Below, one piece after another: positions 13,520-45,920 of a stretch of DNA of 64,000 bases. The position numbers and the translations under genes are program-made. The notes under the pieces were generated by a model. It was not told where the DNA came from and made no database searches. It saw only the letters and a program-made list of their open reading frames with translations. The stretch comes from Actinomycetota bacterium (GTDB lineage Bacteria > Actinomycetota > Actinomycetes > S36-B12): NCBI GenBank assembly GCA_027729805.1, contig JAQCEO010000002.1, positions 33,987 through 97,986 on the forward strand, in the 5' to 3' direction. Each line of letters opens with the position of its first letter. The first letter of the stretch is position 1.

Positions 13520-15208
13520 ATGACAAATATGAAGCCACGTAGCTCCGAGGTCACTGATGGTCTAGAGCGCGCGGCCGCCCGCGGAATGCTCCGAGCAGTT
13601 GGGATGTCTGATGAGGATTTCTCAAAGCCCCAGATCGGGGTGGCCTCGTCTTGGAATGAGATCACGCCTTGCAATCTTTCCCTTGAACGCCTGGCGCGCT
13701 CGGCGAAGGAGGGGGTGCACCAAGCCGGTGGCTTCCCAATGCAATTTGGCACCATCTCGGTCTCGGATGGGATCTCGATGGGCCACGAGGGGATGCACTT
13801 TTCCCTTGTCTCGCGGGAGATCATCGCCGACTCGGTCGAGGCAGTGATGCAGGCGGAGCGCCTTGACGGCATGGTTACCTTTGCGGGCTGCGATAAGTCA
13901 TTGCCGGGCATGTTGATGGCATCGGCGCGCATCGATGTCGCTGCAGTTTTCGTCTATGCCGGTTCCATTCTCCCCGGACACGTGAAATTATCCGATGGCA
14001 CCGAAAAAGATGTCACGATCATCGATGCCTTCGAGGCGGTGGGCGCTTGTGCCCGCGGCTTGATGTCACGCGAAGACGTTGACACCATCGAAAGGGCAAT
14101 TTGCCCGGGTGAAGGTGCCTGTGGTGGCATGTATACCGCGAACACGATGGCAAGTGCGGCTGAAGCCATGGGGATGTCATTGCCGGGTTCGACAGCGCCG
14201 CCGGCAGTCGATCGCCGTCGCGATGGTTTTGCCCGTCGTTCCGGTGAAGCCGTGGTCGAACTCATCCGTCAAGGCATCACCACCCGCGACATCATCACCA
14301 GGCAATCACTTGAGAATGCAATTGCCGTGGTAATGGCATTTGGCGGCTCCACGAATGCGGTTCTGCATCTGCTCGCTATCGCCCATGAGGCAAATGTTGA
14401 ACTCGATATGGAGGATTTCCACCGCATCGGCTCCAAGGTGCCACTGTTGGCCGACGTGAAGCCGTTTGGCCGATTCGTCATGAGTGATGTTGATCGGGTC
14501 GGCGGGGTGCCAGTCATAATGCGGGCCTTGCTCGATGCTGGGCTAATGCACGGTGATTGCCTGACGGTAACGGGTAAGACCATGGCCGAAAACCTCGCGA
14601 ACATCAATCCACCGGATCCGGACGGTGATATTTTGTACGCGTCGAAGAATGCAATTGCCACTACCGGCGGCATCACGATTTTGTCCGGCTCGATGGCCCC
14701 AGAAGGTGCGGTCGTGAAGAACGCCGGGGTGCCGGTTGAGGTATTTGAGGGTGCGGCGCGGGTATTCGAACGGGAGCAGTCGGCGATGGCGGCCCTCGAA
14801 GACGGCACCATTCAAAAGGGCGATGTCATCATCATTCGCTACGAGGGCCCAAAGGGTGGCCCGGGTATGCGCGAAATGTTGATGATCACCGGGGCGATCA
14901 AGGGTGCTGGGCTGGGCAAGGAGGTCATGCTCATCACCGATGGCCGGTTCTCCGGTGGTACGACCGGATTATGTGTTGGTCACGTGGCCCCCGAGGCGGT
15001 CGATGGCGGGCCGATTGGGTTAGTGGCCCAGGGGGATCGGGTGCGGATCGATATCGGTGCCCGGACTTTGGATCTATTGGTTGATGAGGCCGAACTTGCC
15101 AGGCGGCGGGCGGCATTTGTGCCCCTGCCGCCCCGCTACACCCGGGGCGTGCTGGCCAAGTACACCAAGTTGGTGGGCTCGGCATCTAAGGGTGCGGTCT
15201 GCGACTAA
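13520..15208 (+). CDS. ilvD: Dihydroxy-acid dehydratase
   Basis: Fe-S ligand region [11 protein letters not shown] and overall IlvD/Edd pattern; 562 aa. Confidence 0.95.
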
Positions 15209-16187
15209 TCGAGGCTGCTGCCCGAAGGTCGACGGTGCTCAAGGCGCCCGTAACTAGGGTCACCGCGGTAACCGCCCATGCGAATATGAGAACCTCGACC
15301 GCGATTAGCGCGGCCAACCCCTCAACCTTTGGATGTGACACCGAAAGCACCAAGGTGACGGTCGCTAAGGCAGCGATAAGGGCCCCCGCACAAGGGAGAG
15401 CGCGCACGGACACCGGCCCGGTAACGGGCACGCCGCGGCGACGTAATACCCAGGCCGCCGCAAGACTTTGACAGGTGAGGGCGAGAGCGATGCCGCCTAC
15501 GGCGTCGCTCGGTCGGTGCCACCCCGCCAGGACGACGCTGCCGGTAACAAGGATCACCATGGTCAGGCCGCCGATCGCCACGCCGACGCGGGCCCGCACG
15601 GGAACGAGGAAAATCAGTCCGAGTACGAGTGCGGTGATAAAGGTAGCGTGCCCGCTGGGGAATGTATTTAACCCATCTTTACTGCCCATCAGGTTTTCGT
15701 AGTCGGCGGCGAGAATTGGTCGAGGCAGGATGAACTTCAGCGCCTCCGCGGTCAAGATGCTCGCCGCGTACGCGATTGCGATCGCGACTGCCGCGAGCCA
15801 CTGACGTCGAAATGCCGCCACGATGACGAGGATCAAGGCCGCACACAGGAAGACCTTTAGGTCAATAGCCGAAAGGAATCCCTTGTCGAAGACGAGAAGC
15901 GCCTTGCTCTCGGCAAGGCGTCCTAGGTAGGCGGCGTCGCCGATGGCTTGGCCGACCGCGGTCAGTACAAAGACTAGGTAGGTGGTGACAAGCACACCGG
16001 TACCGACGAGGGCCAAAATGCGCAGCCGTCGCACGCTGGTACCCACGACAAGATCTGGCATCCGTCCTCCTGCGTCAGGCCAAAAGAGGTCGTCTCCTCC
16101 AACACCCAACCATAGGGTCACCGAGGCCGAGCGATCGCGACGAAACCCACCTTTGCGCCGGTGATAACTCTGCCACTTTCTTGACAC
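15186..16187 (-). CDS. PAP2-family (type 2 phosphatidic acid phosphatase-like) integral membrane protein
   Basis: PAP2 motifs [25 protein letters not shown]; multiple TM helices. The true start may be ATG 16061 (MPDLVVG...). Its 3' end overlaps the ilvD 3' end by 23 nt. Confidence 0.7.
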
Positions 16188-16269
16188 TGCACACCGTAAA
16201 GGACATGTCGAAGTTAGTGCTGAGGCACTAGTCCGGACGCAGATGAAAATACGAGAAAAGACCCGTAAA

Positions 16270-17703
16270 TCAGTTGGGCATCCTTATTGTCGGTGTCAGC
16301 GGTGCGATTCTCCGCGCGCGAAGGCAGGCGATCAGCACGCCGGTGCCGTACGCGGCGTCGTCGACGAGGCGCAGCGCGAGGTATCGGGCTGGGTCGAGCG
16401 GGGGCCGATGCGTGGCGTACGCCCAGGCGATCGGCGCGAGCATGCATGCGGTGGCTGTCCTCGCGATACGCGAGCGTGGGGACATAGCGAATGCTGCCGC
16501 ACCGATTGGCCACCACTCCCGACGCAGCAGGTGGCCGATTCCGGCGGCATCCGCGACGAGGTTTTGGCCGACGATGCGCGCCGCGAGGAGTTCGGGATTG
16601 TCAAGCACTCGCAACTGACGCGACAGCGCGCCTGCAGCGCTCGCCGTAGCCAGTCCGCCAAGGAGCGGACGTCCAACGGCAAGTAAGCCAAGTGCCGCGA
16701 CATTCCAAAATGACAGCCGCGCCGGTGTCAACTTGTCAGGATGACGACGTGACAGTGCAGCCGCCGACGTTCCATACTCGAAGCGACGGGTCAACCATGC
16801 GCGTGGTCGAGCACGCGTCGAATGGGTGACGATCACCGATGGGTCATAGAGCACATGCCAACCCGCGTCGGTCAGCCGCCAGATCAGGTCGACGTCTTCG
16901 CCCAGCCGCAGGTTCTCATCGAACCCCGCACCGAGCGCGCTGCGTCGCAAGATCAACGCCGCGGTCGGCAGGAATCCGAGCCGCGAGCCAGGTCGCACTA
17001 GCTCGGGGAATACGCCCATATCGAGTGAGGATCGGGTCGTCTCGTAGCGGTCGATGACGCTGTGGCCCGCAGGATTGGCTCGCACTCGGGGTGCAACTGC
17101 CGCGACCGAGGGATCGACGAAGTGGTGCAGCATCGAGTCTGGCCAGCCCGGCGGCGCAATACAATCTGAGTCTAGGAACGCGATAAATTCGCCCTGGGAG
17201 GCGGCAATACCCGTGTTGCGAGCCGCTGCCGGACCACGGTTCACCGCGTGCACGACCAAGGTCGCGCCATGGCGCGCAGCTGCAGCGACCACAGAAGCCG
17301 GATCGAGGGACCCGTCATCAACCACGGTCACGGATCCCGCCCCAAAAACAGAGGTAAGAGTGCGGTCCAGACTGTCGGCTCGGTCCATCGCCGGTATGAC
17401 AACGCTCGCGGCTCCCAAGGACTCTTCTGGGGTCCTGGCCACGATCGCGAGCCCTCGATCCACGAGTATCCGGAAGATCGCAAGCGTCTGCCGGTCCGAA
17501 GCCTCCACTCCGGTGCGGCCATTGGCCAGCAGGTTCACGACCACCGTGCGCGCCCGCCCCGATACCCGGCTGACCCGCCAGGGCGAGCCACCAATCAGCG
17601 CCGACGCATTCGCCCACCCGCGTACCCCAGGCGCGAGCCGCACTACGGTGCCGCGCGGCAGCGAACGATCAAGGAGCAAAGATGCCACCGCAGGTGCAGC
17701 CAC
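16270..17703 (-). CDS. mftF: Mycofactocin glycosyltransferase (family-2 GT with C-terminal membrane domain)
   Basis: GT2 core VVIPAMDRADSLDRTL...VTVVDDGS...FLDSDC; 477 aa, as expected for MftF; adjacent to mftR and mftABCDE. Confidence 0.8.
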   Translation of the reverse strand: MAAPAVASLLLDRSLPRGTVVRLAPGVRGWANASALIGGSPWRVSRVSGRARTVVVNLLANGRTGVEASDRQTLAIFRILVDRGLAIVARTPEESLGAASVVIPAMDRADSLDRTLTSVFGAGSVTVVDDGSLDPASVVAAAARHGATLVVHAVNRGPAAARNTGIAASQGEFIAFLDSDCIAPPGWPDSMLHHFVDPSVAAVAPRVRANPAGHSVIDRYETTRSSLDMGVFPELVRPGSRLGFLPTAALILRRSALGAGFDENLRLGEDVDLIWRLTDAGWHVLYDPSVIVTHSTRARPRAWLTRRFEYGTSAAALSRRHPDKLTPARLSFWNVAALGLLAVGRPLLGGLATASAAGALSRQLRVLDNPELLAARIVGQNLVADAAGIGHLLRREWWPIGAAAFAMSPRSRIARTATACMLAPIAWAYATHRPPLDPARYLALRLVDDAAYGTGVLIACLRARRIAPLTPTIRMPN

Positions 17704-17704
17704 C

Positions 17705-18298
17705 TCAGTTGTCCAGGATCGAGTGCAGCGCCGACCCGGTGCCTAGCAGCAACTCCTCGAGGGTGTGCGCGTCGCTCTCAAGCCACTGCTCGTATGCCGA
17801 TAATGCCAGCGCCAAGGCCACGTGCCCCGCTAGCCGCGGCACCAGGCTATCCACCGGAGTGGCAAGCCGCGTAGCGACGTAGTTGGCGATCACCGCGCGC
17901 CACTGCTCGTACCGCAGGGCCGAGTGGGCCTGCAGCGCCGGCGTGCGCAAGATGAGGGTCATCCGCTGCCGGTGCTGGGGGAGGGCGAGCGGATCGAAGT
18001 GGTTGAAGTCAACGACCGCGCGGTTGATGGCTTCGAAAAGCGGCACATCAGCATGTGTTGACTCAAGGTTCACCCGCAGGACTTCGAGGCTAGCGTCGAA
18101 CCGCCCCCACGGAATGTCGTTCTTCGATGGGAAGTAGCGGAACAGTGTCCGTCGCCCAACCCCCAGTGCCGTCGCGATGTCGTCGAGGGTCGTATTGTCG
18201 AACCCTTGGGTCGCGAACAACTCGAACGAGACGGCTTCGATTTCGGCGTGGCTCGTCACGGGTGGACGTCCGGCTACTAGCCGCTGTGCGGTGCTCAT
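17705..18298 (-). CDS. mftR: TetR-family regulator of the mycofactocin system
   Basis: TetR HTH TTLDDIATALGVGRRTLFRYFPSKNDI; divergent from mftA; stop lies 1 nt before the mftF start. Confidence 0.8.
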   Translation of the reverse strand: MSTAQRLVAGRPPVTSHAEIEAVSFELFATQGFDNTTLDDIATALGVGRRTLFRYFPSKNDIPWGRFDASLEVLRVNLESTHADVPLFEAINRAVVDFNHFDPLALPQHRQRMTLILRTPALQAHSALRYEQWRAVIANYVATRLATPVDSLVPRLAGHVALALALSAYEQWLESDAHTLEELLLGTGSALHSILDN

Positions 18299-18424: not shown

Positions 18425-18538
18425 ATGTTCCTCGGTTCACCACAGGAAGACGCAGCCCTGCAGTCCCCACCAGCAGACAGCCAAGTTGAGACATTAATTG
18501 AGGATATCTCGATCGATGGCATGTGCGGCGTCTACTAG
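18425..18538 (+). CDS. mftA: Mycofactocin precursor peptide
   Basis: C-terminus ...VETLIEDISIDGMCGVY* carries the canonical IDGMCGVY. ATG 18425 is preceded by GAAGGGAG. The 77-aa ORF-track call (18305) is an over-extension. Confidence 0.9.
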   Translation: MFLGSPQEDAALQSPPADSQVETLIEDISIDGMCGVY

Positions 18539-18557: not shown

Positions 18558-18857
18558 ATGGTGATGCTGGATGAGCCGTGGCAGTTGTCTCCAGACGTTG
18601 CGCTTCGCACTGAGCCCTTCGGTGCCCTCGCCTACAACTTCCGGACTAGGCGGCTTACCTTTCTCAAGCGACCTGAACTCGTCGCGGTGATCGCGGGCCT
18701 GAGCGCCGGCGCCGATGTGCGCGAGGCGCTGCAGGCAGCGAGTGTTCCTCCCGTCCAATGGTGCGCTTACCTAAAGGCCCTGGAGTCACTGGCGGCGGCG
18801 GGCACGATCCAACCGCGAGGCTGTATACAACCACAACAACAGGAGGCTGCATCGTGA
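18558..18857 (+). CDS. mftB: Mycofactocin precursor-binding chaperone (RRE protein)
   Basis: PWQLSPDVALRTEPFGALAYNFRTRRLTFLK pattern; 99 aa; its stop overlaps the mftC GTG. Confidence 0.85.
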   Translation: MVMLDEPWQLSPDVALRTEPFGALAYNFRTRRLTFLKRPELVAVIAGLSAGADVREALQAASVPPVQWCAYLKALESLAAAGTIQPRGCIQPQQQEAAS

Positions 18858-20104
18858 CGATTCTTGATGAGCGAATCAGCACCGCTCCGGCAGTCCGTCC
18901 TACCGGAGGATCGCTGCTCGACCAGTTCGAGTTGGGCCTCAACGCGCCGATCTGCCTGACCTGGGAACTGACCTACGCGTGCAACCTCGCTTGCGTCCAC
19001 TGCCTGTCATCATCGGGAAAGCGCGACCCCCGCGAGCTCAGCACCGAACAGTGCGAGGCGGTGATTGACGAATTGCAGCGCATGCAGGTTTTCTACGTGA
19101 ACATCGGCGGGGGCGAGCCCACGATCCGACCGGACTTTTGGCACCTGATCCAGTACGCCGTTTCGCATCAGGTCGGCGTGAAGTTCTCAACCAACGGTGT
19201 GCGCGTCACACCTGAGCGGGCGGCCTTCCTTGCCTCGACCGACTACGTAGACGTGCAGATCTCACTCGACGGCGCCACCGCCGAGGTTAATGACCGCGTG
19301 CGCGGTACCGGCTCTTATGACATGGCGATCCGCGCGCTGGATAACCTGTCCGTGTCCGGTTTCAAGGACGCGAAGATCTCGGTCGTAGTTACCCGCGAGA
19401 ACGTTAGCCAACTCGACGAGTTCAAGGCGCTGGCCGACCGCCACGGTGCCACGCTGCGACTAACCCGGCTGCGTCCCTCGGGCCGCGGCGCGGACGTGTG
19501 GGATGACCTGCATCCGACGGCCGCGCAGCAGCGTGATCTCTACAACTGGCTGATACAGGCTGGCCCGAACGTCCTCACTGGCGACTCGTTCTTCCACCTC
19601 GCCGGATTCGGCGAACCGCTGCCCGGCCTCAACCTCTGCGGCGCCGGCCGCGTGGTGTGCCTCATCGATCCCATCGGCGATGTGTACGCGTGCCCCTTCG
19701 CCATCCACGACAACTTCCTCGCCGGCAACATCACCGCGCTCGGCGGCTTCCAGAACGTCTGGCAGAACTCCGAGTTGTTCGCCGACCTGCGCTCCCCGCA
19801 AACTTCCGGCGCATGCACCAAGTGCCAGCATTTCGATTCGTGCCGTGGTGGTTGCATGGCCGCGAAGTTTTTCACCGGCCTGCCGCTCGACGGCCCGGAC
19901 CCCGAATGCGTCCAAGGATTCAGCGAGGACGCCCTACTGCAGGTTGGCCGCACGATCCCCGCCGCGAGCCAGGACCACTCGAAGCCCAGCAAGCGGGGGC
20001 AGGAGCCGGTGTTTCTGCAATTGGGAATGCTCAGTCCAGCGACACCCCCGGTGCACGGGTGCGCCCAGAGTCCTATCGCTGGCCGCGACCCAGGCGCGAG
20101 CTAA
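18854..20104 (+). CDS. mftC: Mycofactocin radical SAM/SPASM maturase
   Basis: Radical SAM CNLACVHC; C-terminal SPASM cysteines CTKCQHFDSCRGGC. GTG 18854 overlaps the mftB stop as GTGA. The ORF-track start at 18758 overlaps mftB. Confidence 0.9.
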   Translation: MTILDERISTAPAVRPTGGSLLDQFELGLNAPICLTWELTYACNLACVHCLSSSGKRDPRELSTEQCEAVIDELQRMQVFYVNIGGGEPTIRPDFWHLIQYAVSHQVGVKFSTNGVRVTPERAAFLASTDYVDVQISLDGATAEVNDRVRGTGSYDMAIRALDNLSVSGFKDAKISVVVTRENVSQLDEFKALADRHGATLRLTRLRPSGRGADVWDDLHPTAAQQRDLYNWLIQAGPNVLTGDSFFHLAGFGEPLPGLNLCGAGRVVCLIDPIGDVYACPFAIHDNFLAGNITALGGFQNVWQNSELFADLRSPQTSGACTKCQHFDSCRGGCMAAKFFTGLPLDGPDPECVQGFSEDALLQVGRTIPAASQDHSKPSKRGQEPVFLQLGMLSPATPPVHGCAQSPIAGRDPGAS

Positions 20105-20124: not shown

Positions 20125-21312
20125 GTGGCAAATCCGTGGTTTGAGTCCGTCGCCGAGGCGCAGCGCCGCGCCAAGAAGCGGCTGCCCTCCTCGGTCTATA
20201 GCGCGCTGCTCGCTGGCAATGAGAAGGGCACCTCCTACGACGACAACATCACCGCATTCTCCAAGATCGAACTGGCTCCCCACGTCGCCGGCCTACACTC
20301 CGAGCGCGAGTTGTCCACGACTTTCATGGGCCATGCCATCTCGTTCCCCGTCGTCACCTCGCCGACGGGAGTCCAGTGCGTCCACCCCGACGGCGAGATC
20401 GCGATCGCCCGCGCAACCGCCGCCCGTGGCACGGCAATGGTGCTTGGCTCATTCGGCAGCAAGCCCCTCGCTGACGTCATCGCCGCGAACCCGCTCACCT
20501 TCTTCCAGATTTATTGGATGGGGACCCGCGATCAGATGCTCGAGCGCCTCGCCTATGCCAGGGATCTCGGAGCCAAGGGCATTATGTTGACCCTCGACTG
20601 GTCCTTCGCTACTGGACGCGACTGGGGCAGCCCCGTTATCCCCGAGCGGATCGGCTTCAAGACCATGGTGCAGTTCGCCCCGCAGGTCATCGTCAAGCCC
20701 AAGTGGCTCGTGTCATTCGCTCGGGGTGGGGGCATTCCAGACCTCCGCACCCCGAACCTGAAGAATGAGGCGGGGGCGACCCCCACCTTCTTCGGTGCCT
20801 ACTACGAGTGGATGCAGACACCACCGTGCACGTGGGAGGACCTCGCGTGGCTGCGCTCGCAGTGGGAAGGTCCGTTCATGCTTAAGGGCATTTGCCGCGT
20901 CGACGACGCGAAGCGGACGGTAGACGCGGGCTTCTCGAGCCTGTCGGTCTCTAACCACGGCGGCAACAACATCGACTCCACGCCCGCACCCATTCGCGTC
21001 CTCCCGTCGATCGTCCGGGCCGTAGGCGACCAAGTCGAGATCGTCATGGATGGCGGGATTCGCAGAGGAAGCGACGTCGTCAAGGCAGTCGCGCTCGGCG
21101 CCAAGGCCGTCATGATCGGACGCCCGTACCTCTGGGCACTAGCAGCGAACGGGCAGGCCGGAGTCGAGAACGTCCTAGACATCCTCCGCAGCGGCATCGA
21201 CTCCACCGTCTACGCGCTCGGGCACAAATCGATCCGCGACCTGAGCCCCGCGGACGTCTTCGTCCCTGCGGGATTCACGCGAACGCTCGGTGCCGACGGG
21301 AGCAAACAATGA
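20125..21312 (+). CDS. mftD: FMN-dependent alpha-hydroxyacid-oxidase-like pre-mycofactocin synthase
   Basis: LldD-type motifs (VSNHGGNNID, DGGIRRGSDV). In-frame GTG 20125 follows GAAAGG. The 468-nt 5' extension in the ORF track overlaps mftC. Confidence 0.9.
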   Translation: MANPWFESVAEAQRRAKKRLPSSVYSALLAGNEKGTSYDDNITAFSKIELAPHVAGLHSERELSTTFMGHAISFPVVTSPTGVQCVHPDGEIAIARATAARGTAMVLGSFGSKPLADVIAANPLTFFQIYWMGTRDQMLERLAYARDLGAKGIMLTLDWSFATGRDWGSPVIPERIGFKTMVQFAPQVIVKPKWLVSFARGGGIPDLRTPNLKNEAGATPTFFGAYYEWMQTPPCTWEDLAWLRSQWEGPFMLKGICRVDDAKRTVDAGFSSLSVSNHGGNNIDSTPAPIRVLPSIVRAVGDQVEIVMDGGIRRGSDVVKAVALGAKAVMIGRPYLWALAANGQAGVENVLDILRSGIDSTVYALGHKSIRDLSPADVFVPAGFTRTLGADGSKQ

Positions 21313-22043
21313 CCAAGGTGCATCGGCTGGCCACCATGACGTGGGACGATGTCCCACCGAAGTCACTCGTACTCGTTCCCATGGGCTCGACCGAGCAGCA
21401 CGGCCCGCACTTGCCGTTCGAGACAGACACGCTCATTGCCACCGCAGTCGCGGAGAGCATAGCTAAGGCCATGAACGGTGAAGGAGTGGATGTCATCCTC
21501 GCGCCCGCCATCGCTTACGGCGCGAGTGGCGAGCACCAAGAGTTTCCCGGCACCATCTCCATCGGCCATGACGCACTGCGGATGCAGATCGTCGAGCTCG
21601 TGCGCTCGCTCTCCACCTGGGCGGGGCGCATCGTGTTCGTCAACGGCCACGGTGGCAACGTCAAGTCTCTCGCCTCGGCGATCGAGGAGATGCGCCAAGA
21701 GCAGCATGACGTTGCGTGGCTGGCATGCATCTTGGAGTCGGCCGGCGATGCCCACGCCGGATCGATCGAAACCTCAGTCATGCTCCACCTCGCACCGGAG
21801 CGGGTCCGCATGGACAAGGCTGAGCCCGGGCAACTCGCCTCTCTCAAGGAGATTCTCCCGTTGCTGATGTCGTCTGGAGTCAAAGCGGCATCGCCGTCCG
21901 GAGTATTGGGAGACCCCACCACCGCGGCCGCTGACATTGGCCAACAGCTGGTGGACCAACTCGTCGCCAGCGGCGCAGCACTCATCACCTACGCAGCCGT
22001 CGACGACCAAGGACGACTCGTCTCAAGCGAACTTGCCTCGTGA
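21309..22043 (+). CDS. mftE: Creatininase-family mycofactocin peptidase
   Basis: GSTEQHGPHLP metal-binding motif; 244 aa; ATGA overlap with mftD. Confidence 0.85.
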   Translation: MTKVHRLATMTWDDVPPKSLVLVPMGSTEQHGPHLPFETDTLIATAVAESIAKAMNGEGVDVILAPAIAYGASGEHQEFPGTISIGHDALRMQIVELVRSLSTWAGRIVFVNGHGGNVKSLASAIEEMRQEQHDVAWLACILESAGDAHAGSIETSVMLHLAPERVRMDKAEPGQLASLKEILPLLMSSGVKAASPSGVLGDPTTAAADIGQQLVDQLVASGAALITYAAVDDQGRLVSSELAS

Positions 22044-33798: not shown

Positions 33799-33810
33799 AT
33801 AATCACCGCC

Positions 33811-37364: not shown

Positions 37365-37376
37365 GCCGTAATTCTC

Positions 37377-38294
37377 CTAGCCGATCGGTGTGAGGTCGTA
37401 GAACTCGATCGCGGTGCCCGCGAATAGCCGCGCCCGCTCCGCTGGGGTGAAGTCGGCGGTGATCTGCGAGAAAGCCTGGAAGATCGTGGGGTAATCGGTG
37501 TAGAGCTTGTCGACGGGAAAATTGCTCGCAAACATGGCCCGCTCGGAACCGAAGATGTCGATCGCCGACAAGACGATCGGGCGGATCGAATCTGCGGTCC
37601 AGTCGTGATCTAGCATGCCCAACCCCGAGATTTTCACCGAGACATTCGGGTTGGCCGCCAGGGCGCGCATCCCCGCCCGCCACATCGTCATCGATTCTTC
37701 GTCGCGGTCGATGGGAAAGCCGGTGTGGTTCAGCGCGACGCGTGCGTCGGGGTACGCGGCGACTAGGGCGGCTGCCTCCTGCATTTGATTGGGCCAGATC
37801 TGCATGTCGAAGCGCAGTCCCATCCGCGCCAGAAGCGCAAAGCCGCGCCGCCAATCGCTGCTGGACATGTAGTCCCCGTGCTCGACAAAGGACCGCCCGG
37901 GGACGGTGTCCCAGTTGAGCATATGGCGGATGCCGCGGAACCGGTCGTACTTCGCGTGGGCCTCGAGCAGGGACTGTACATCGGGGTGGGAGAGGTCAGC
38001 GAAGCCCACGATTCCCATCGGGAATCCGGTCTCGGCGGCCTGCTGGGTGAGCCAGGCGGTTTCGCCCACCGGATTGGCCGGGTCGAACTCGGCCTGGACG
38101 TGGACCGAGGCGACCACCGGCAGCCCAACGGTATCGGCCAGATAATCGGTGGCGAGGTAGTTCTGGCAGATGGACTCGTAGTCCCCGACAAAGTTGATCA
38201 CGCGGGGATTGGCGTGCAGCCAGATGTGGTAGTCGCGCATGTCCCAAAGGTGGTGGTGCGCATCAGCGATGGGCGGGATTTCGACGTCCGTCAT
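37377..38294 (-). CDS. Amidohydrolase-2 (PF04909-type) metal-dependent hydrolase, sugar-lactonase/decarboxylase class
   Basis: N-terminal IADAHHHLWD metal-binding motif and a later HTGFP...D pattern, as in the L-fucono-1,5-lactonase / LigI group. Confidence 0.75.
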   Translation of the reverse strand: MTDVEIPPIADAHHHLWDMRDYHIWLHANPRVINFVGDYESICQNYLATDYLADTVGLPVVASVHVQAEFDPANPVGETAWLTQQAAETGFPMGIVGFADLSHPDVQSLLEAHAKYDRFRGIRHMLNWDTVPGRSFVEHGDYMSSSDWRRGFALLARMGLRFDMQIWPNQMQEAAALVAAYPDARVALNHTGFPIDRDEESMTMWRAGMRALAANPNVSVKISGLGMLDHDWTADSIRPIVLSAIDIFGSERAMFASNFPVDKLYTDYPTIFQAFSQITADFTPAERARLFAGTAIEFYDLTPIG

Positions 38295-38393: not shown

Positions 38394-38840
38394 ATGCAGG
38401 TTCGAGTACTCAATCACATTGCCGTCACGGTCACCGACACCCAGCGGTCCTTGGACTTCTATGTCGGGAAGTTGGGCCTGGTGCAGGTAGAGCAGCATCA
38501 ACTCCCGAAGTCTTCCATCGATACGGTGTTCGGACTCACGGGTGCCTCTGGTACATCGACCCGCCTCCAGGTGCCCGGCCAACCCGACATCCTCATCGAC
38601 ATCATGGAGATCTTGGGGGCGGAAGCAGGGACCGTGGTGCAGCCGTTGGGATCGATCGGTTCCACCCACATGGCATTCACCGTGGACAACCTCGACGAGG
38701 CGGTAGCCGAACTGAAGGCCAAGGGGGTTTCCTTCATCTCCGAGCCGGTGACCTTCCACCTGACCGAAGGGTCGGTGACCGTGTGCTTCATGCACGATCC
38801 GGATGGCAACTACGTCGAACTCGAAGAGGTACACGCATAG
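38394..38840 (+). CDS. VOC (glyoxalase/dioxygenase) family protein, copy 2
   Basis: LNHIAVTVTDTQRSLDFYVGKLGL...CFMHDPDGNYVELEE; ATG 38394 is preceded by AAGGAG (38381-38386). The 609-nt 5' extension in the ORF track is antisense to the amidohydrolase gene. Confidence 0.8.
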   Translation: MQVRVLNHIAVTVTDTQRSLDFYVGKLGLVQVEQHQLPKSSIDTVFGLTGASGTSTRLQVPGQPDILIDIMEILGAEAGTVVQPLGSIGSTHMAFTVDNLDEAVAELKAKGVSFISEPVTFHLTEGSVTVCFMHDPDGNYVELEEVHA

Positions 38841-38883
38841 GAATCCCTGCTGGTTAAAGGGATGTTGTCAGGGATGGTGAGTT

Positions 38884-39918
38884 ATGTTGCGCTGGGGCTT
38901 GTTGAGCACCGCCCGGATCAATGATCGCATCATCGACGCGGTGGGCCGCTCCGATCGGTCGACGCTGGTGGCGGTGGGCTCGCGTGCTGCCGAGCGTGCG
39001 AAGTCCTATGCGGCTGCACGTGGGATTCCAATGGCCTTCGGAAGTTACGAGGAACTCATCGGCTCCGCCGAAATCGATGCGATCTACCTTTCCTTGCCCA
39101 ACCACCTGCACGCGCAGTGGTCGATCGCTGCACTCGAGGCGGGCAAGCACGTGCTCTGTGAGAAGCCGCTGGCGTTGACCGTGGCCGAGGTCGACCGTAT
39201 GACCGAGGCTGCACAGCGCGCCGGCCGGGTGCTGCAGGAGGCTTCCGCGCCGCGGTTCCACCCGCAGACCGCGGATATCGCATCGATCATTGCCTCCGGC
39301 AAACTTGGTCGCATCCTGCTGTGTCAAAGCGCCTTCGAGTTCACCTTGCCGGCAACGAAGGACATCCGCCTCGATCCGGCAATCGGCGGAGGAGCGCTGT
39401 GGGATTTGGGCTGTTACCCGGTCACGTTCTTTCAGGCGGTGCTGGGCGAGAACCCCGAGGTGGTCTACGGACAAGCATTTATTGGCCCGTCAGGAGTTGA
39501 TCTCGCCTTCGCCGGGACGATGGGCTACCGCTCCGGGGCGAGCGTGCAGTTCACCGCGAGCATGACCACGCCCATTGCTCGCAGTGCGCGCATCGTAGGA
39601 GAGCGCGGTTCGCTCGAGCTCGATCAGCCGTGGTTAACCAATATCGGTGGTCAGACATCGGTTCGACAGTGGTCGATGCGCGCGTCGTCGGGGTCGGGCA
39701 CATTCGGCGATGATCCTGACCAACTCGAACTCACTAAGTGGGACTACGGTCCCAGCGACGTCTACCTCGATGAAGTGCGTGGCTTCGAGGAGATAGTCCT
39801 GATGGGTGCGCCGTCGCCCTATCCGCCCGCGGATAGCAGAATCAACACCGAGGTCATGACTAGGCTGCACGAGTCGATCCGGACGGGTGGTCCGGTGCGG
39901 ATAGGGATGGGTTCATGA
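38884..39918 (+). CDS. Gfo/Idh/MocA-family oxidoreductase
   Basis: LRWGLLSTARINDRII Rossmann N-terminus; VLCEKPLA motif. Confidence 0.8.
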   Translation: MLRWGLLSTARINDRIIDAVGRSDRSTLVAVGSRAAERAKSYAAARGIPMAFGSYEELIGSAEIDAIYLSLPNHLHAQWSIAALEAGKHVLCEKPLALTVAEVDRMTEAAQRAGRVLQEASAPRFHPQTADIASIIASGKLGRILLCQSAFEFTLPATKDIRLDPAIGGGALWDLGCYPVTFFQAVLGENPEVVYGQAFIGPSGVDLAFAGTMGYRSGASVQFTASMTTPIARSARIVGERGSLELDQPWLTNIGGQTSVRQWSMRASSGSGTFGDDPDQLELTKWDYGPSDVYLDEVRGFEEIVLMGAPSPYPPADSRINTEVMTRLHESIRTGGPVRIGMGS

Positions 39919-41087
39919 GTGAAAAGCGCACCCTCGGCCACGGGATCATCGGTGCCGGGTGGATGGGACACGTACATGCCCGTGCCACCGCACGGTTGGC
40001 CCACCACTACCCGGATCTCCCAGCGCGCACCACGCTCGTGGCGGTTGCGGACACCCTGCCGAGCCACCTTGAGACCTTCGTTGATCAGCACGGACCGATC
40101 GAGACCACTTTGGACTGGCGCGCGGTGATCGAGGATCCGCGGGTCAGCGTGGTGAGCGTGACCGCGCCCAATGCCGTGCACGCTGAAATCGGTGAAGCGG
40201 TGGCACGCGCCGGTAAGCACCTGTGGATCGAGAAGCCGGTCGGACTGAATGCGGCCGATTGCGCTCGGGTGGCCACGGCGGTTCGCGAGGCCGGGGTGCA
40301 GGCGGCTGTGGGTTTTAACTACCGCAACTTCCCGCCCGTCGAGCACGCCCAGCACCTGATCAGATCCGGTGCCATCGGGACTCCAACACATGCCACGGTG
40401 CGCACGCTCGCGGACTACGCGGCCGATCCGGTCGGCACTTTATCTTGGCGATACACCATCGCGCAGGGGGGTCATGGCATCCTCGCCGACCTCGGTTCGC
40501 ACGGTTTCGACCTGATCCGCATGCTGCTCGGTGACATCGACGAGTTGGTCGCGGACACCGCAACCTTTATCAGCAAGCGGCCCATCGCCAAGCCCGGTGC
40601 GAGCCACTTCGCCACGGCGGACCTCAACGATCCAGACCTCGAGTTCGGCGCGGTGGAGAACGAGGACTACATCTGTGCGCTGCTGCGCATGGCTAATGGT
40701 GCTCGCGTGACCTACGAGGCCGGGCGCTCGTCCATCGGGGATCAGTGCAACTACGGATTCCACATCCATGGCACCGAGGGTGCGTTGAGTTGGGACTTCC
40801 GTCGCTCGGATGAACTGCTGCTCAGCGTCGGCGGCCCCTACCAGGGGCGCCCCACCCAGGTGGTGTTCGGCGAACCGGGAATTGGTGAGTACCAGCGGTT
40901 CCAGCCCGGTGCGGGTGTGGCGATCGGTTATGACGACTCCAAGGTGATCGAACTGGCCCGCCTACTCGAATCGATTGACGCGGGCGCGCCGGTGGGGGCG
41001 ACGATCGAGGACGCGCTGCGGGCTGCGCTCGCGAACGAGGCTGTGCTCGCATCGTTGGCGTCCGGTCACTGGGAGCCGGTGGCATGA
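39915..41087 (+). CDS. Gfo/Idh/MocA-family oxidoreductase
   Basis: HGIIGAGWMGHVHARA; LWIEKPVG motif; ATGA overlap with the previous gene. Confidence 0.8.
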   Translation: MSEKRTLGHGIIGAGWMGHVHARATARLAHHYPDLPARTTLVAVADTLPSHLETFVDQHGPIETTLDWRAVIEDPRVSVVSVTAPNAVHAEIGEAVARAGKHLWIEKPVGLNAADCARVATAVREAGVQAAVGFNYRNFPPVEHAQHLIRSGAIGTPTHATVRTLADYAADPVGTLSWRYTIAQGGHGILADLGSHGFDLIRMLLGDIDELVADTATFISKRPIAKPGASHFATADLNDPDLEFGAVENEDYICALLRMANGARVTYEAGRSSIGDQCNYGFHIHGTEGALSWDFRRSDELLLSVGGPYQGRPTQVVFGEPGIGEYQRFQPGAGVAIGYDDSKVIELARLLESIDAGAPVGATIEDALRAALANEAVLASLASGHWEPVA

Positions 41088-41980
41088 GTGATCTGGCGCT
41101 ACTACCTGCCGGACTCGGTGCGGTAAACACACCTGTGCCGGTGTCGGTGTATTCCGAGGACGGCGAGGTCGATGCTGGAGCACTTGCTGAGGCGACCTTC
41201 TTCGTGCCGATCTATATGGGGCCGCCGACGAACCTCGCACTGATGGAATGCATGCCACAACTTCGCGTCTGCCAAATGTTGACCGCCGGATTCGACAACG
41301 CGTTATCGCATCTACCCGCAGGGGTAATTTTATGTAATGCGGCGGGTGTGCACGATGCGAGCACCGCGGAACTGGCCCTCGGCTTGATCATCGCCAACCT
41401 GCGCGGACTCGACGACGCGGCTCGCGATATGCCGCAAGGAGTCTGGCGACATCGCCGACTGCCCGCATTGGCGGACAAGGTGGTTCTGGTCATCGGTGCT
41501 GGTGGCGTGGGCCAGGCGATCCGTCAGCGGCTCGAGCCTTTCGAGGTCGAGGTGATCATGATGGGCCGGACCGCACGTGCTGGGGTGCGGGGGATGGCGG
41601 AACTAGACGCGATCTTGCCCACGGTGGATGTGGTGATCCTCGCGGTCCCATTGGCCGCCACCACCACGGGTATGGTCGATGCGCACTTCCTGGCCGGCAT
41701 GAAAGATGGGGCTCTGCTGGTTAACGTCGCGCGCGGGCAGGTGGTGCAGACAGATGCACTGCTGGCAGAGCTCACCCGGGGGCGCCTGCGGGCATCCCTT
41801 GATGTGACCGACCCCGAGCCGCTGCCTTCAGACCACCGGCTGTGGTCGGCGCCCGGGTTGCTGATCAGCCCGCATGTCGGGGGCAATTCATCTGCGTTCC
41901 TGCCGCGGGCTCGCCGCCTAGTCCGTGAGCAACTCGAGCGGCTGGCCGTGGGTCATGAACTCGTCAATCGGGTTGCCTGA
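41084..41980 (+). CDS. D-isomer-specific 2-hydroxyacid dehydrogenase family protein (island copy, paralog of 12581-13477)
   Basis: VIGAGGVGQAIRQRL; long identical runs with the core copy (LCNAAGVHDASTAEL, LDVTDPEPLP); the same 298-aa length. Confidence 0.8.
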   Translation: MSDLALLPAGLGAVNTPVPVSVYSEDGEVDAGALAEATFFVPIYMGPPTNLALMECMPQLRVCQMLTAGFDNALSHLPAGVILCNAAGVHDASTAELALGLIIANLRGLDDAARDMPQGVWRHRRLPALADKVVLVIGAGGVGQAIRQRLEPFEVEVIMMGRTARAGVRGMAELDAILPTVDVVILAVPLAATTTGMVDAHFLAGMKDGALLVNVARGQVVQTDALLAELTRGRLRASLDVTDPEPLPSDHRLWSAPGLLISPHVGGNSSAFLPRARRLVREQLERLAVGHELVNRVA

Positions 41981-42022
41981 GGTGGACCCCAGTGCACCTT
42001 TTGCCAACTGCCAACAACTGGC

Positions 42023-42997
42023 ATGCTGATGAGTAAAATGGACATCGTGACCACCGGCAAAGAGGCGAGGGTTGTCACCATGCCATTCGCTGATGCGCTC
42101 GTCTCTTTGGGTCAATCGCGATCAGACGTTGTAGTGCTGAGCGCCGACCTGAGCAACTACACCGACCTAATTCCGTTCCGCGACGCCTTCCCAGATCGAT
42201 TCTTCCAGGTGGGCATGGCGGAACAGAATATGATGGGGATCGCAGGTGGCCTCGCCCGCTCGGGCCTCTTGCCGATCGCTGTCACTTACGGGGTGTTCGC
42301 CACCCGACGAGCCTACGATCAGGTAGCCATGGCTTTGGGCACTGGCACGGTCAAGGCCATCATCGTCGCCTTTCTACCAGGCATCACCACGCCGTTTCGC
42401 GCCACGCACCAAGCAACTGACGATCTTGCGCTGATGCGGGCAATCCCTGGCATGACGGTTATCGACCCAGCCGACTCGACGGAGCTGCGAGCAGCCCTTC
42501 ATGCCGCAGCGGCGAATCCAGGAACGGTCTACCTGCGGGGACTAAGGGGTCTGGTCGAGGAGCGTTTTGATCCCGAGGGCTTCATCTTCGCAATCGGCGC
42601 TGCGCGTCTGGTACGCGACGGACCTGACGCCGCGATCGTAGGGACGGGTCTTGGCACGGCTTGGGCCCTAGATGCCAGTGAAATTCTTGCCGCCCGCGGC
42701 ATCTCGGCGAGCCTGCTGCACGTGCCAACCCTGAAGCCCCTTGATCGCGAAGCCATCGCGGCGCTGGCGGCGCGATTCGCGGTCGTTCATGTTGTCGAAA
42801 ACCACTCGGTGGTAGGCGGCCTAGCTAGTGCTGTTGCCGAGGTGATAGCGGGAATCGGCGCACCAACTCGCGTGAACCCGATAGGTGTGCCAGACCAGTG
42901 GGCGCCGGCCGGTTCACTTGACTACATCAGATCTGAGATCAATTTGTCAGCGGTTGGGATCGCGGACCGCGTGTTGGCGACTTGGACTGGTCCGTGA
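42023..42997 (+). CDS. Split transketolase, C-terminal (Pyr + C-domain) subunit, copy 2
   Basis: FADALVSLG...VVLSADLSN...FQVGMAEQNMMGIAGGLA; the start could also be 42029 or 42038. Confidence 0.85.
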   Translation: MLMSKMDIVTTGKEARVVTMPFADALVSLGQSRSDVVVLSADLSNYTDLIPFRDAFPDRFFQVGMAEQNMMGIAGGLARSGLLPIAVTYGVFATRRAYDQVAMALGTGTVKAIIVAFLPGITTPFRATHQATDDLALMRAIPGMTVIDPADSTELRAALHAAAANPGTVYLRGLRGLVEERFDPEGFIFAIGAARLVRDGPDAAIVGTGLGTAWALDASEILAARGISASLLHVPTLKPLDREAIAALAARFAVVHVVENHSVVGGLASAVAEVIAGIGAPTRVNPIGVPDQWAPAGSLDYIRSEINLSAVGIADRVLATWTGP

Positions 42998-43794
42998 TCT
43001 CTGACAAGGAGCTCGCTGACCGCGCGCAGTCCATCCGTCGTCGATGCATAGCCATGTGCCGCGGACGCGGGCAAGGCTATGTGGGCCAAGGATTGGCGCT
43101 CGCAGACCTAATGGCGGCGTTGTACTTCGATGAGATGCGGCGGACGTCGGCCGGTGACCTGCATGACCGACTCATCTTGTCGACCGGACACAGTGCTATC
43201 GCGCTATACGCGGCACTTGGTGAGCTCGGTGAATTCAGTGCTGACGAGTTGGCCACCTACGGGATGGATGGTTCGCGTATCGAGGAGAGCCCGTTGGCCG
43301 GACTCCCGGGATTCCTAGTTACCGGCGGTTCACTCGGTCAGGGGCTATCGCAAGCTGTTGGCTTTGCGTTAGCCGACCGTTTAAAGGGTTCGGATGCCCG
43401 GACTTTCTGCCTGATCAGCGACGGAGAACTTCAGGAGGGACAGGTTTGGGAGGCGGCGATGTCAGCCGGTCACTACAGGCTCGGATCCCTAGTAGTGCTT
43501 ATTGACGACAACGGGATGCAGGCGGACGGGGATACTGCGCAGGTGATGACAGTACAACCGATCGCGGGGAAGTTCACCGCCTTCGGCTTCAGCGCGAAAA
43601 ATGTGGACGCGAACGATCTGAGTGCGCTTCGGGCTGCATTAGTTAGCACGCGCGAGCCCAGCGACCGCCCGCATGCCCTAGTTTGTCGGACGATCCCGGG
43701 TAAGGGAGCACCGACGCTGGAGGCCTACACAAAAGTGCATTATGTGCGCGCCGCGGACGAGGTCTGGCAGCGCGCGATGAGTGAGATCCGATGA
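42982..43794 (+). CDS. Split transketolase, N-terminal (TPP/PP-domain) subunit, copy 2
   Basis: GQGYVGQGLALADL and SDGELQEGQVWEA TPP motifs. GTG 42994, overlapping the upstream TGA as GTGA, is an equally good start. Confidence 0.85.
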   Translation: MDWSVISDKELADRAQSIRRRCIAMCRGRGQGYVGQGLALADLMAALYFDEMRRTSAGDLHDRLILSTGHSAIALYAALGELGEFSADELATYGMDGSRIEESPLAGLPGFLVTGGSLGQGLSQAVGFALADRLKGSDARTFCLISDGELQEGQVWEAAMSAGHYRLGSLVVLIDDNGMQADGDTAQVMTVQPIAGKFTAFGFSAKNVDANDLSALRAALVSTREPSDRPHALVCRTIPGKGAPTLEAYTKVHYVRAADEVWQRAMSEIR

Positions 43795-44996
43795 TTGACG
43801 TTATCACCGCGATCTCAACAATTCGTTGGAGCGAGCAGCCCAACTGTCTGTGGGTTGAAGTGGAGACCGAGGCGGGACTGGTTGGGCTCGGCGAGACTTA
43901 CTACAACGCGGGCGCAACGGAGTCCGTTGTTCACGACATGGCTGCTCCACTCCTGCTCGGCGCCGATCCCGAGGCCAGGACCTTGCACTGGCGAAATCTT
44001 TTTGCCTGCGCCAACTTCTACGGGTACGCGGGCGCCGAGATGCGCGCGTTCAGCGCCCTAGACATTGCCTTATGGGATATCGCCGGGCGGATACTAGATC
44101 GCCCGATCCATGCGCTGCTTGGGGGCGCGGTGCACGCGGGTGTGCCGATCTACGCCACGTGCGCGGATGCTGGCGGGTACCTAGATCAACAGCGGTCAAT
44201 GACGGATCCAGGTGGCCTCGCGATGGAGTTGCTCGCATCGGGGATCACCGCGATGAAGGTGTGGCCATTTGATCAGTTCGCACCTCAAATCGCTTTCGAA
44301 ACTACGACCGGTCCCGCAGGTTGGTCCGCTATGGGCCCGCCGGGCAGTTACTTATCGAGCACCGATCTCGGTAAGGGCCTTTCCGTGGTGCAACAGATAC
44401 GAGATGCCGTCGGAGACAGCGTCGAGATCATCATTGAGGGCCATTCGCGCTGGGACCTAAACTGTGCGCTGCGAATCCTGCGCGCTCTAGAGCCATACGA
44501 CATCTTGTGGGTCGAAGACATCATGCAACCCGATAGCGTGGGCGATCTGAGGCGACTGGCCCAAGAGACGCGAGTCCCACAGGCGGTCAGCGAGCGACTC
44601 TTCACTCGATATCGCTACCGTGATGTGCTTGAGGCGCAGGCGGCCAACGTCATCATGCTCGACGTGGCGTGGACGGGTGGGATTTCAGAGGCATCGCGAA
44701 TCAGCGACCTTGCCGACACTTTCCATCTTCCCGTCGCTCCACACGACTGCACCGGTCCGGTCACCGCCCTCGCGAATCTCCACTTGTGCGCCGCCAAGAC
44801 CAACATCATGACCACCGAGGTGGTCCGCGGGTTCGTCGACGGCTACTACCTTGATGTTCTTGATACGCGACTGCCGATCAATGGTGGTACGGCCAGCGTT
44901 CCTGCGGGTCCAGGCCTAGGCGCGGCCCTTCGGGATGACTTCCGCGGTCGCCCCGGGGTGTCGATTCGCAGAAGTGATATTGGGCGGCGTACGTGA
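43791..44996 (+). CDS. Enolase-superfamily acid-sugar dehydratase (mandelate racemase/galactonate dehydratase-like)
   Basis: VEVETEAGLVGLGET...ALDIALWDIAGRILDRPIHALLGG...; metal-ligand region IIEGHSRWD...LWVEDI; 401 aa. Confidence 0.8.
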   Translation: MIDVITAISTIRWSEQPNCLWVEVETEAGLVGLGETYYNAGATESVVHDMAAPLLLGADPEARTLHWRNLFACANFYGYAGAEMRAFSALDIALWDIAGRILDRPIHALLGGAVHAGVPIYATCADAGGYLDQQRSMTDPGGLAMELLASGITAMKVWPFDQFAPQIAFETTTGPAGWSAMGPPGSYLSSTDLGKGLSVVQQIRDAVGDSVEIIIEGHSRWDLNCALRILRALEPYDILWVEDIMQPDSVGDLRRLAQETRVPQAVSERLFTRYRYRDVLEAQAANVIMLDVAWTGGISEASRISDLADTFHLPVAPHDCTGPVTALANLHLCAAKTNIMTTEVVRGFVDGYYLDVLDTRLPINGGTASVPAGPGLGAALRDDFRGRPGVSIRRSDIGRRT

Positions 44997-45742
44997 CGCG
45001 GCTGCATGGACTATCGGTGGTAGTGACCGGAGCCGCGGGTGCCATCGGTCAAGAGACCGCGCGTCACCTACTTAAGGCGGGTGCTTCTCGCCTCCTTCTC
45101 ACCGACCTGCCCAGGTCTGGCGTCGACGCGGTTGCTGAGTCGCTGCGCGAGGGACACTTTGAGATTGCGTCCGTGGAAATCGATGTCGCGGACTCGGCCG
45201 CGTTCGTGGATGTCCTAGCGGCACATCAGACCTTCCTCGGCTCGATCGATGTCCTAGTCAATGTTGCGGGCTTCTGGCAGATCATCGACTTCGTCGACAG
45301 TGATGCTGACCAATGGGAGCTGATGATCCGCGCTAATCTCCTAACTGCAATAAGTACCTGTCACAGTGTGCTTCCCCAAATGCTGGCTCAGGGTCGCGGC
45401 TCGATCGTGAACTTCGCCTCCACCGCCGGCGAGTACGGATCGATCCGACCGTCCGCCGCCTACGCGGCTGCCAAAGGTGGTGTCATCGCGTTTACGAAGT
45501 CGCTTGCCCGGGAGGTTTCGCCCCGCGGTGTTCGCGTGAACGCGATCAGTCCAGGACCCATAGACACCCCGGCACTGCAAGCAGCCTCCGATGAGGCGCG
45601 CGCGGGTGCGGCTGCGCGGACGCTCGTGGGTCGCCTCGGCCTGCCCGCGGATATCGCGAGCGGGGTGGTGTTCCTCGCGAGCGATGAGTCGTCTTTCATG
45701 ACGGGAGCGGTGCTTGCCGTCAACGGGGGCAGCCTGCTGTGA
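44993..45742 (+). CDS. Short-chain dehydrogenase/reductase (classical SDR)
   Basis: VVVTGAAGAIGQETA, NFASTAG, catalytic YAAAKGG; GTGA overlap with the dehydratase gene. Confidence 0.85.
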   Translation: MTRLHGLSVVVTGAAGAIGQETARHLLKAGASRLLLTDLPRSGVDAVAESLREGHFEIASVEIDVADSAAFVDVLAAHQTFLGSIDVLVNVAGFWQIIDFVDSDADQWELMIRANLLTAISTCHSVLPQMLAQGRGSIVNFASTAGEYGSIRPSAAYAAAKGGVIAFTKSLAREVSPRGVRVNAISPGPIDTPALQAASDEARAGAAARTLVGRLGLPADIASGVVFLASDESSFMTGAVLAVNGGSLL

Positions 45743-45762
45743 CGCAACAGAGCGCAGGCGGA

Positions 45763-45792
45763 AAAGGGGTTTGGCCTTGGGCTGGCCCCTTT
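45763..45792. terminator. Bidirectional hairpin between the convergent SDR gene and tRNA-Gly
   Basis: AAAGGGG...CCCCTTT stem. On the minus strand it reads AAAGGGG-N16-CCCCTTTTCC, i.e. it is followed by a T-run downstream of the tRNA. Confidence 0.45.
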
Positions 45793-45849
45793 CGTGCCGG
45801 GTCCGTCGGCCCTGCGGGCCTCCTCCCGATCCGCGCGGCCCGCTCTTCG

Positions 45850-45920
45850 AGCGGGTGACCGGGATCGAACCGGCATGGCCAGCTTGGAAGGCTGGGGCTC
45901 TACCATTGAGCTACACCCGC
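45850..45920 (-). tRNA. tRNA-Gly (anticodon UCC), 71 nt, no encoded CCA
   Basis: Reverse complement folds by hand: GCGGGTG-TA-GCTC-AATGGTA-GAGC-C-CCAGC-CTTCCAA-GCTGG-CCAT-GCCGG-TTCGATC-CCGGT-CACCCGC-T. Confidence 0.9.

Follow-up and report, generated by a model that had tools for sequence, protein, structure and literature searches.

A GC-rich region with mycofactocin and catabolic genes beside a tRNA-Gly(UCC) insertion hot spot in a Nanopelagicales-related actinobacterium

We analysed a 64,000-nucleotide stretch of contig JAQCEO010000002.1 (positions 33,987 to 97,986, forward strand; assembly GCA_027729805.1; Actinomycetota; Actinomycetes; S36-B12), here called the window, which carries a variable region of 30.6 kb (15.2-45.85 kb) between the core gene ilvD and the 3′ end of a tRNA-Gly(UCC) gene (Table 1). 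From left to right, this region encodes a PAP2-family phosphatase, a mycofactocin (mft) gene block, a short junction with a possible transposase remnant and a truncated permease gene, and two catabolic modules that we refer to as C and B. An earlier annotation made from the letters alone (the sequence-only reading) had named ilvD, a convergent 23-nt overlap between the end of the PAP2 open reading frame (ORF) at 15186 and the ilvD 3′ end, and the orientation of tRNA-Gly, whose 3′ end points into the region; these landmarks and their coordinates were all correct. The last gene of the region extends to 45742, shortly before the 3′ end of tRNA-Gly (45849). Loci and contigs of other genomes used in the comparisons are given as L numbers.

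Table 1. Features of the region and its borders; positions refer to the window.
Feature	Position	Strand	Evidence
ilvD, last core gene on the left	13520..15208	+	Pfam ILVD_EDD_N, ILV_EDD_C
PAP2-family membrane phosphatase	15186..16187	-	Pfam PAP2, 48.1 bits
mftF, mycofactocin glycosyltransferase	16270..17703	-	NCBIfam TIGR03965, 393.8 bits, cut-off 280
mftR, TetR-family regulator of the mycofactocin system	17705..18298	-	NCBIfam TIGR03968, 258.1 bits, cut-off 224.9
mftA, precursor peptide ending IDGMCGVY	18425..18538	+	Sequence; NCBIfam TIGR03969, 44.9 bits, cut-off 25
mftB, chaperone	18558..18857	+	NCBIfam TIGR03967, 96.3 bits, cut-off 33
mftC, radical SAM maturase	18854..20104	+	NCBIfam TIGR03962, 647.6 bits, cut-off 265
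mftD, pre-mycofactocin synthase	20125..21312	+	NCBIfam TIGR03966, 654.7 bits, cut-off 470.85
mftE, peptidase	21309..22043	+	NCBIfam TIGR03964, 305.3 bits, cut-off 172
Mycofactocin-coupled short-chain dehydrogenase/reductase (SDR), subfamily 4/2	22040..22858	+	NCBIfam NF040491 (NF040491/TIGR04504), 366.4 bits, cut-off 265
Mycofactocin-coupled SDR, subfamily 1	23268..24095	+	NCBIfam TIGR03971, 411.7 bits, cut-off 300
Possible C-terminal remnant of an IS3-type (rve) transposase, ~50 amino acids	24302..24460	+	Pfam rve_2, E = 1.1e-3, 19.5 bits, below cut-off 22
ABC permease gene, 5′-truncated, C-terminal half only	24581..25156	-	Pfam BPD_transp_2, profile positions 121-267 of 269
Module C: split transketolase (N and C halves), cytochrome P450, VOC/glyoxalase, GFO/IDH/MocA oxidoreductase, GntR/FCD regulator	25205..30589	+	Pfam
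Module B, first part: fused E1 alpha-beta thiamine-dependent dehydrogenase, GntR/FCD regulator, APH-like kinase	30972..34854	+	Pfam
Module B: SMP-30/gluconolactonase-like, DMFA2_C-family and Amidohydro_2 (lactonase-like) proteins	34867..38294	-	Pfam
Module B, last part: VOC protein, two GFO/IDH/MocA oxidoreductases, 2-hydroxyacid dehydrogenase	within 38394..45742	+	Pfam, NCBIfam
Module B, last part (continued): split transketolase (C half, N half), enolase-superfamily dehydratase, SDR	within 38394..45742	+	Pfam, NCBIfam
tRNA-Gly(UCC), anticodon tcc; 3′ end faces the region	45849..45920	-	ARAGORN, Rfam
FTR1 iron permease gene and tRNA-Pro(UGG), start of the conserved right flank	46159..47106	+	Pfam FTR1, ARAGORN

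The mycofactocin gene set is complete, with mftF, mftR, mftA, mftB, mftC, mftD, mftE and two genes for mycofactocin-coupled SDRs all scoring above their NCBIfam cut-offs; a gene for the GMC-type MftG is not present in the region. In published work, MftB, MftC, MftD, MftE and MftF are assigned to the steps that convert MftA to a glycosylated redox cofactor (PMC9679996). Based on this gene content, we predict that the cargo makes mycofactocin, with mftA-F under the control of MftR, and supplies two dehydrogenases coupled to this cofactor. Other contigs encode mftC homologues that are 97-87% identical, and the block from mftF to the SDR is kept as a unit in three of the loci compared (L111-L113) at 72-91% protein identity, each time with different neighbours. 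The counterpart of the subfamily 4/2 SDR stays after mftE in all three (82-84% identity), and the subfamily 1 SDR has a 73% homologue adjoining a DMFA2-like cluster in L118. No ilvD, PAP2 or catabolic genes were found in the mft neighbourhoods of L111-L113, one of which is a 3.46 Mb chromosome of a metagenome-assembled genome (MAG). The mftC of L111 is 90% identical to that of the window, and the L111 genome is absent from the best 120 trigger factor matches (at least 74% identity). Large plasmids of Tsukamurella, Streptomyces and Mycolicibacterium also carry mft clusters, and thus these clusters move between genomes.

Downstream of the mft genes, the truncated permease gene and the weak transposase remnant together mark where the mft part meets module C. 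In L112, a full-length gene of the BPD_transp_2 family, encoding 353 amino acids, lies downstream of the mft cluster. What the sequence-only reading had called an internal insertion sequence (IS) scar amounts to an rve_2 match under the Pfam cut-off beside the truncated permease gene and is to that extent weakly supported. An independent contig (L119) confirms module C to be contiguous with the mft genes.

Module B has close counterparts elsewhere. Its first part is syntenic in L115 and L116 at 76-86% identity, the trio of SMP-30-like, DMFA2_C and Amidohydro_2 genes is conserved in L114-L118 (76-91%), and the last part, up to the second transketolase N half (TktN2), is syntenic in L115 and L117 at 86-97%. 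Across L115-L117, the block from the E1 gene to the transketolase genes (30.9-43.8 kb) is retained at 76-97%. The region is therefore a mosaic, since the mft block and module B each occur separately elsewhere (L111-L113 and L115-L117, respectively). Judged from their predicted proteins, the two GntR-controlled blocks appear to serve the catabolism of a substrate of the sugar, lactone or polyol type. As no catabolic gene scores above an NCBIfam cut-off, this substrate class is only a prediction; below the cut-offs, levoglucosan dehydrogenase, inositol dehydrogenase, fuconolactonase and galactonate dehydratase gave the best partial matches. A search of plasmids with the DMFA2-like protein returned only distant matches (at most 42% identity) in Proteobacteria and Streptomyces. 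Besides the 2-hydroxyacid dehydrogenase of module B (41084-41980), the window encodes a second one among the core genes (12581-13477); each has 298 amino acids, and the two are 60% identical. Homologues encoded upstream of ilvD in L004, L013 and L027 are 54-56% identical to the module B copy compared with 50-52% to the core copy.

The DMFA2-like/E1 cluster of L118 has a partial mftF, two mycofactocin-coupled SDR genes and a GMC oxidoreductase gene interleaved with it, which hints that the cofactor and the DMFA2-like/E1 pathway cooperate. Taken further, the region could be a self-contained, transferable unit of mycofactocin-dependent catabolism in which cofactor synthesis, the SDRs and the module enzymes act on one sugar-, lactone- or polyol-type substrate. 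We regard this as a speculative and unlikely proposal; if true, uncultured Nanopelagicales-related actinobacteria would join the organisms with mycofactocin metabolism. Either way, the region provides a lead on the role of the DMFA2-like/E1-fusion cluster alongside mycofactocin-coupled enzymes.

The composition of the region differs from that of its flanks. Overall G+C is 0.629 in the whole region versus 0.586 in the pooled flanks, with individual genes at ~56-62% outside and 60-66% inside (gatA 0.579, ilvD 0.596 and clpX 0.573 versus PAP2 0.620, mftC 0.641 and the gene at 36.3 kb 0.660). Hand counts in the sequence-only reading had put this contrast at 52-62% versus 65-72%; the shift is real but smaller. 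G+C at third codon positions (GC3) averages 0.738 ± 0.050 across 29 genes of the region, compared with 0.653 ± 0.051 across 22 genes of the flanks (Mann-Whitney p = 3.4e-6), in agreement with the more G/C-rich third positions noted earlier. Tetranucleotide usage, corrected for base composition and calculated for four flank and four region pieces, correlated at r = 0.85-0.89 between flank pieces and 0.78-0.88 between region pieces, as against 0.59-0.73 between region and flank pieces. For the undivided sequences, r was 0.755 between the region and the flanks and 0.93 between the two flanks. The sliding profiles of G+C, GC3 and tetranucleotides that had been called for are thus not flat but form a block pattern. 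The shift is sharp near 15 kb and gradual across 42.5-46 kb, where the last four region genes have GC3 values of 0.67-0.70 that overlap those of the right flank.

In tetranucleotide profile the region is closer to GC-richer actinobacterial DNA, namely L004, L112, L115-L118 and a Mycobacterium locus (r = 0.83-0.94), than to its own flanks, and the flanks resemble core DNA of sister strains (r = 0.93-0.94). Contigs with homologues of the mft genes or module B have 62-68% G+C throughout, none includes a core gene of the window's lineage, and their r to the window flanks is only 0.44-0.61. Between 17000 and 23000, GC skew is negative over the plus-strand mftA-E operon and positive in plus-strand genes of the flanks, so that the operon looks as if it had been placed opposite to the orientation in which it evolved, which fits a recently placed segment. 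The G+C of the closest relatives by ilvD varies widely (L005 0.45, L002 0.53, L004 0.67, L003 0.69). Inference of a donor from composition is complicated by such fast change (45-69%) within the group.

The right border is defined to the base. In blastn comparisons, similarity of the window to L123, L082, L124 and L105 (~90%) starts at 45849, the 3′ terminal base of tRNA-Gly. Rightwards of this base the order tRNA-Gly, FTR1, tRNA-Pro, tig, clpP1P2, clpX, valS, folC is kept in relatives with 88-95% identical trigger factor, and the part with FTR1 and tRNA-Pro is conserved in L082, L105 and L123. Leftwards, the comparison covered the 8.7 kb beside tRNA-Gly, and no gene of the region was found there in L082, L087, L105 or L123-L125. 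One trigger factor sequence (P0244) is encoded identically on 321 contigs. Those compared are 99.6-99.8% identical from the tRNA 3′ terminal base rightwards but fall into three or more types on its upstream side, each with an unrelated gene set. The set in L123 and L125 comprises an acetyltransferase gene, a DUF6159 gene, a molybdopterin oxidoreductase pair, a Fic/RHH pair and a VKOR gene, and is core-like in composition (G+C 0.583, r to the window flanks 0.885). In L124 and L128, an excisionase-family gene (TIGR01764, 62.5 bits, cut-off 28.8) lies directly at the tRNA and is followed by a GntR-regulated 2-oxoacid dehydrogenase cluster of foreign-like composition (G+C 0.617, r to the flanks 0.617). 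The set in L082 includes a C-terminal integrase fragment, an LRV-repeat protein and an SF1 helicase, and in the more distant relative L105 an IS6-type transposase gene occupies the same place.

Because unrelated gene sets break from near-identical core DNA at its 3′ base, we conclude that tRNA-Gly(UCC) is an insertion hot spot. The sequence-only reading had noted that a tRNA 3′ end is the classical insertion point of islands, and the unrelated DNA in sister strains, with its excisionase gene and integrase remnant, bears this out. L124 (7963-8764) and L082 (7940-8740) differ in cargo but have in common a stretch of ~800 bp at tRNA-Gly that contains the excisionase-family gene; the L082 integrase fragment lies just past it. 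The arrangement points to related integrative elements or nested insertions. Several contigs end just upstream of tRNA-Gly. A search of L082, L087, L105 and L091 for attachment (att) repeats within the 8.7 kb on the upstream side of the tRNA gave none. Since relatives with 95% identical trigger factor lack the region's genes in the 8.7 kb by the tRNA, content at this site turns over at strain level. The earlier description of the region as old, composite and domesticated therefore stands for composite, and its age and domestication are doubtful.

The left border coincides with the end of ilvD. Blastn similarity to L002-L005 stops at the ilvD stop codon (15198-15207), the C-terminus encoded at the junction is conserved and intact, and no gene of the region lies downstream of ilvD in these four loci. 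The adjoining PAP2 gene, which was called at 15186-16061 on an independent scaffold (L001), was not found beside the mft genes of L111 or L112. In the closest species-representative genome by ilvD (89%), Ca. Nanopelagicales bacterium EUL_228, ilvD is followed by ilvB, ilvN, ilvC, serA, leuA, leuB and ilvE, and many other Actinomycetota have a serA-like gene downstream of ilvD at the same distance. Scanning of the 13 closest ilvD loci revealed no tRNA gene within 10 kb of ilvD, and hence none in which tRNA-Gly directly follows it. The picture of a region wedged between two ancestral neighbours, drawn in the sequence-only reading, is thus not borne out. As no available genome shows an ilvD/tRNA-Gly adjacency as the ancestral state, the left junction requires a rearrangement or replacement. 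Independent metagenome scaffolds reproduce the window from 8753 to 31063 and from ~31.8 kb to 49885 at identities of at least 99.5% (the second was read and aligned over 33791-49885), and because they include both junctions between the region and the core genome, neither is an assembly artefact.

Based on these observations, we consider it likely that the tRNA-Gly(UCC) 3′ end anchors a variable island and that the region is the version present in this strain, filled from GC-richer Actinomycetota and since deprived of its recombination genes. Under this scenario, elements with a tyrosine recombinase and an excisionase would target the tRNA-Gly 3′ end, cargo modules from GC-richer Actinomycetota would gather at this site and be reshuffled, and recombination genes and att repeats would be lost afterwards. 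The far end of the island may then have been joined to the ilvD stop codon by rearrangement or replacement in this strain. Several points weigh against this proposal. The window contains no integrase gene, excisionase gene or att repeat, and site-specific integration of this particular cargo is therefore deduced from the sister strains. The 90% identity of mftC to GC-rich relatives is close to the 87-89% seen for the conserved core protein ClpX, so that mftC identity alone does not prove transfer. In L105, ordinary-looking genes for SelO and a trehalose synthase fusion upstream of the tRNA have region-like composition. Finally, the 8.7 kb read in sister strains leaves room for genes of the region further out, and the genomes compared at the left border were all more distant (ilvD identity of at most 89%).

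Some of these points would also fit a native, vertically inherited region, long resident in the chromosome, that sister strains have lost or replaced, its higher G+C arising from local effects such as GC-biased repair where recombination is frequent or gene-specific codon use. Related uncultured actinobacteria do encode close homologues of the mft genes (87-97%) and module B (76-97%), GC-rich relatives show 87-89% identity for ClpX, much like the 90% for mftC, and the DNA upstream of the tRNA in L105 is likewise GC-richer than the L105 core. However, local effects would have to account for a signature shared by all four pieces of a 30 kb region, which correlate with the 32 kb of flanks at only r = 0.59-0.73, and the similarity break falls exactly at the tRNA 3′ base. 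Moreover, the contigs with mft or module B homologues, all at 62-68% G+C, include no core gene of this lineage, and the non-housekeeping genes of L123 and L125 at the same site are core-like. Accessory genes of the lineage are thus not GC-rich by default, an explanation that we rejected on the basis of these two contigs. Native origin appears unlikely, and less likely than an island. At the other extreme, the location at a tRNA 3′ end and the excisionase and integrase remnants of sister strains would suit an intact, still excisable mobile element, i.e. an integrative and conjugative element (ICE), an actinomycete ICE (AICE) or a prophage. Pfam scans of all region ORFs of at least 150 amino acids detected no integrase, excisionase, replication, FtsK/Tra-type transfer or phage structural gene, and tblastn searches of the window with the sister-strain integrase and IS6 transposase gave no match. 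Short-word blastn and a repeat finder recovered only chance matches to the tRNA-Gly and tRNA-Pro 3′ ends (at most 12 nt, E ~0.5, scattered and partly inverted), which agrees with the earlier remark that no integrase and no direct repeat of the tRNA 3′ end could be seen. With every defining gene absent from the region, we ruled out an intact mobile element as virtually impossible.

A different objection concerns the assembly itself, since a false join in the E1 gene near 31.0-31.8 kb could have united two accessory segments from different loci, one running from ilvD through PAP2 and mft to module C and the other from module B to tRNA-Gly. Assemblies repeatedly break in the 5′ part of the fused E1 gene: in three cases, each from a different assembly, a contig ends at 31038-31063, the next scaffold begins near 31.8 kb, and among the contigs compared no independent one covers 31064 to ~31800. 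Look-ups of exact proteins gave no match for the E1 fusion, which fits the lack of any other assembly spanning that gene, nor for the GFO gene at 28848, probably owing to a start-codon mismatch. In relatives, E1 is preceded by amidohydrolase, oxidoreductase, lipoyl carrier and SDR genes rather than by the GntR gene of module C. On the other hand, the contig of the window itself spans the stretch, composition is equal on either side of it, and contig breaks are expected at strain-variable sites too. We therefore regard a false join as improbable, and it would leave two accessory segments of the same nature. Just upstream of E1, a 53-amino acid ORF (30814-30975) has a non-significant SDR-like match (E = 0.14).

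The flanks of the region consist of conserved genes. On the left these are, in order, etfB, etfA, a cysteine desulfurase gene, mnmA, ligA, gatA, gatB, a 2-hydroxyacid dehydrogenase gene and ilvD. On the right, tRNA-Gly, FTR1 and tRNA-Pro are followed by tig, clpP1, clpP2, clpX, valS (minus strand), folC, an Abhydrolase_9 gene, mreB, mreC, an ORF of 169 amino acids without a Pfam match that occupies the position of mreD, and pbp2. In aligned relatives ndk lies between folC and the Abhydrolase_9 gene; it was not located in the window. The right flank had been likened to the gene order of Streptomyces coelicolor; it is indeed a conserved actinobacterial block, but our comparison shows nothing beyond that. 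An Rfam scan found the two tRNAs and no other family. A 26-nt inverted repeat (92% complementary, 17-nt loop; 45994-46062) between tRNA-Gly and the FTR1 gene, which matches no Rfam family, may serve the iron permease gene as a terminator or operator. ARAGORN places tRNA-Pro (anticodon tgg) at 47033-47106. The spacer between the two tRNAs (45920-47033) measures ~110-200 bp in distant relatives (L091, L093, L102 and L103 were compared); it holds the FTR1 gene in the window's lineage and is ~8.9 kb long in L091, and hence it is variable as well. Between clpX and valS, sister strains encode a MazE-antitoxin/PIN-toxin pair (L123:14336-14976), and the window has ORFs of corresponding size (112 and 135 amino acids) at the same place (51450-52192).

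The region provides a base-exact example of a tRNA-Gly(UCC) hot spot at which metabolic cargo is swapped among strains of an uncultured actinobacterial population, and shows that a full mycofactocin system can belong to the swappable gene pool outside Mycobacteriales. Neither the hot spot nor a swappable mycofactocin system changes current ideas, and their value lies in pangenome and annotation work on this lineage.

Compared with known systems, the region is an ordinary kind of genomic island and represents no new type of element. Classical tRNA-integrated genomic or metabolic islands carry a tyrosine integrase. The region shares with them the position at a tRNA 3′ end, atypical composition, absence from the compared parts of this locus in relatives, accessory metabolic cargo and a mosaic structure with a possible IS remnant. 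It differs in that the window copy has no integrase or other recombinase and no flanking direct repeats derived from the tRNA, the sister strains alone keeping an excisionase gene and an integrase fragment. ICE or AICE genes are absent from the region. The mycofactocin cluster of Mycobacterium and Mycolicibacterium (PMC9679996) has the same seven genes, an MftA ending in GVY and two coupled SDR genes, whereas in the window it lacks an MftG gene, lies inside a variable island and belongs to a Nanopelagicales-related MAG instead of a member of Mycobacteriales. Additive flexible genomic islands by tRNA genes were described in aquatic bacteria by Rodriguez-Valera and co-workers, including Ca. Actinomarinales, with tRNAs as targets for cassette insertion and tell-tale direct repeats at recent insertions (PMC7771536). 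Unlike these, the region has no detectable direct repeats, and its far border is a housekeeping gene, ilvD, that is missing its usual ilvBNC neighbours, which argues that rearrangement was also involved. It matches them in having one tRNA-side site with cassettes that vary among strains of one population, as seen in the three gene sets of the P0244 contigs, near-identical core DNA opposite, and assembly breaks at the site.

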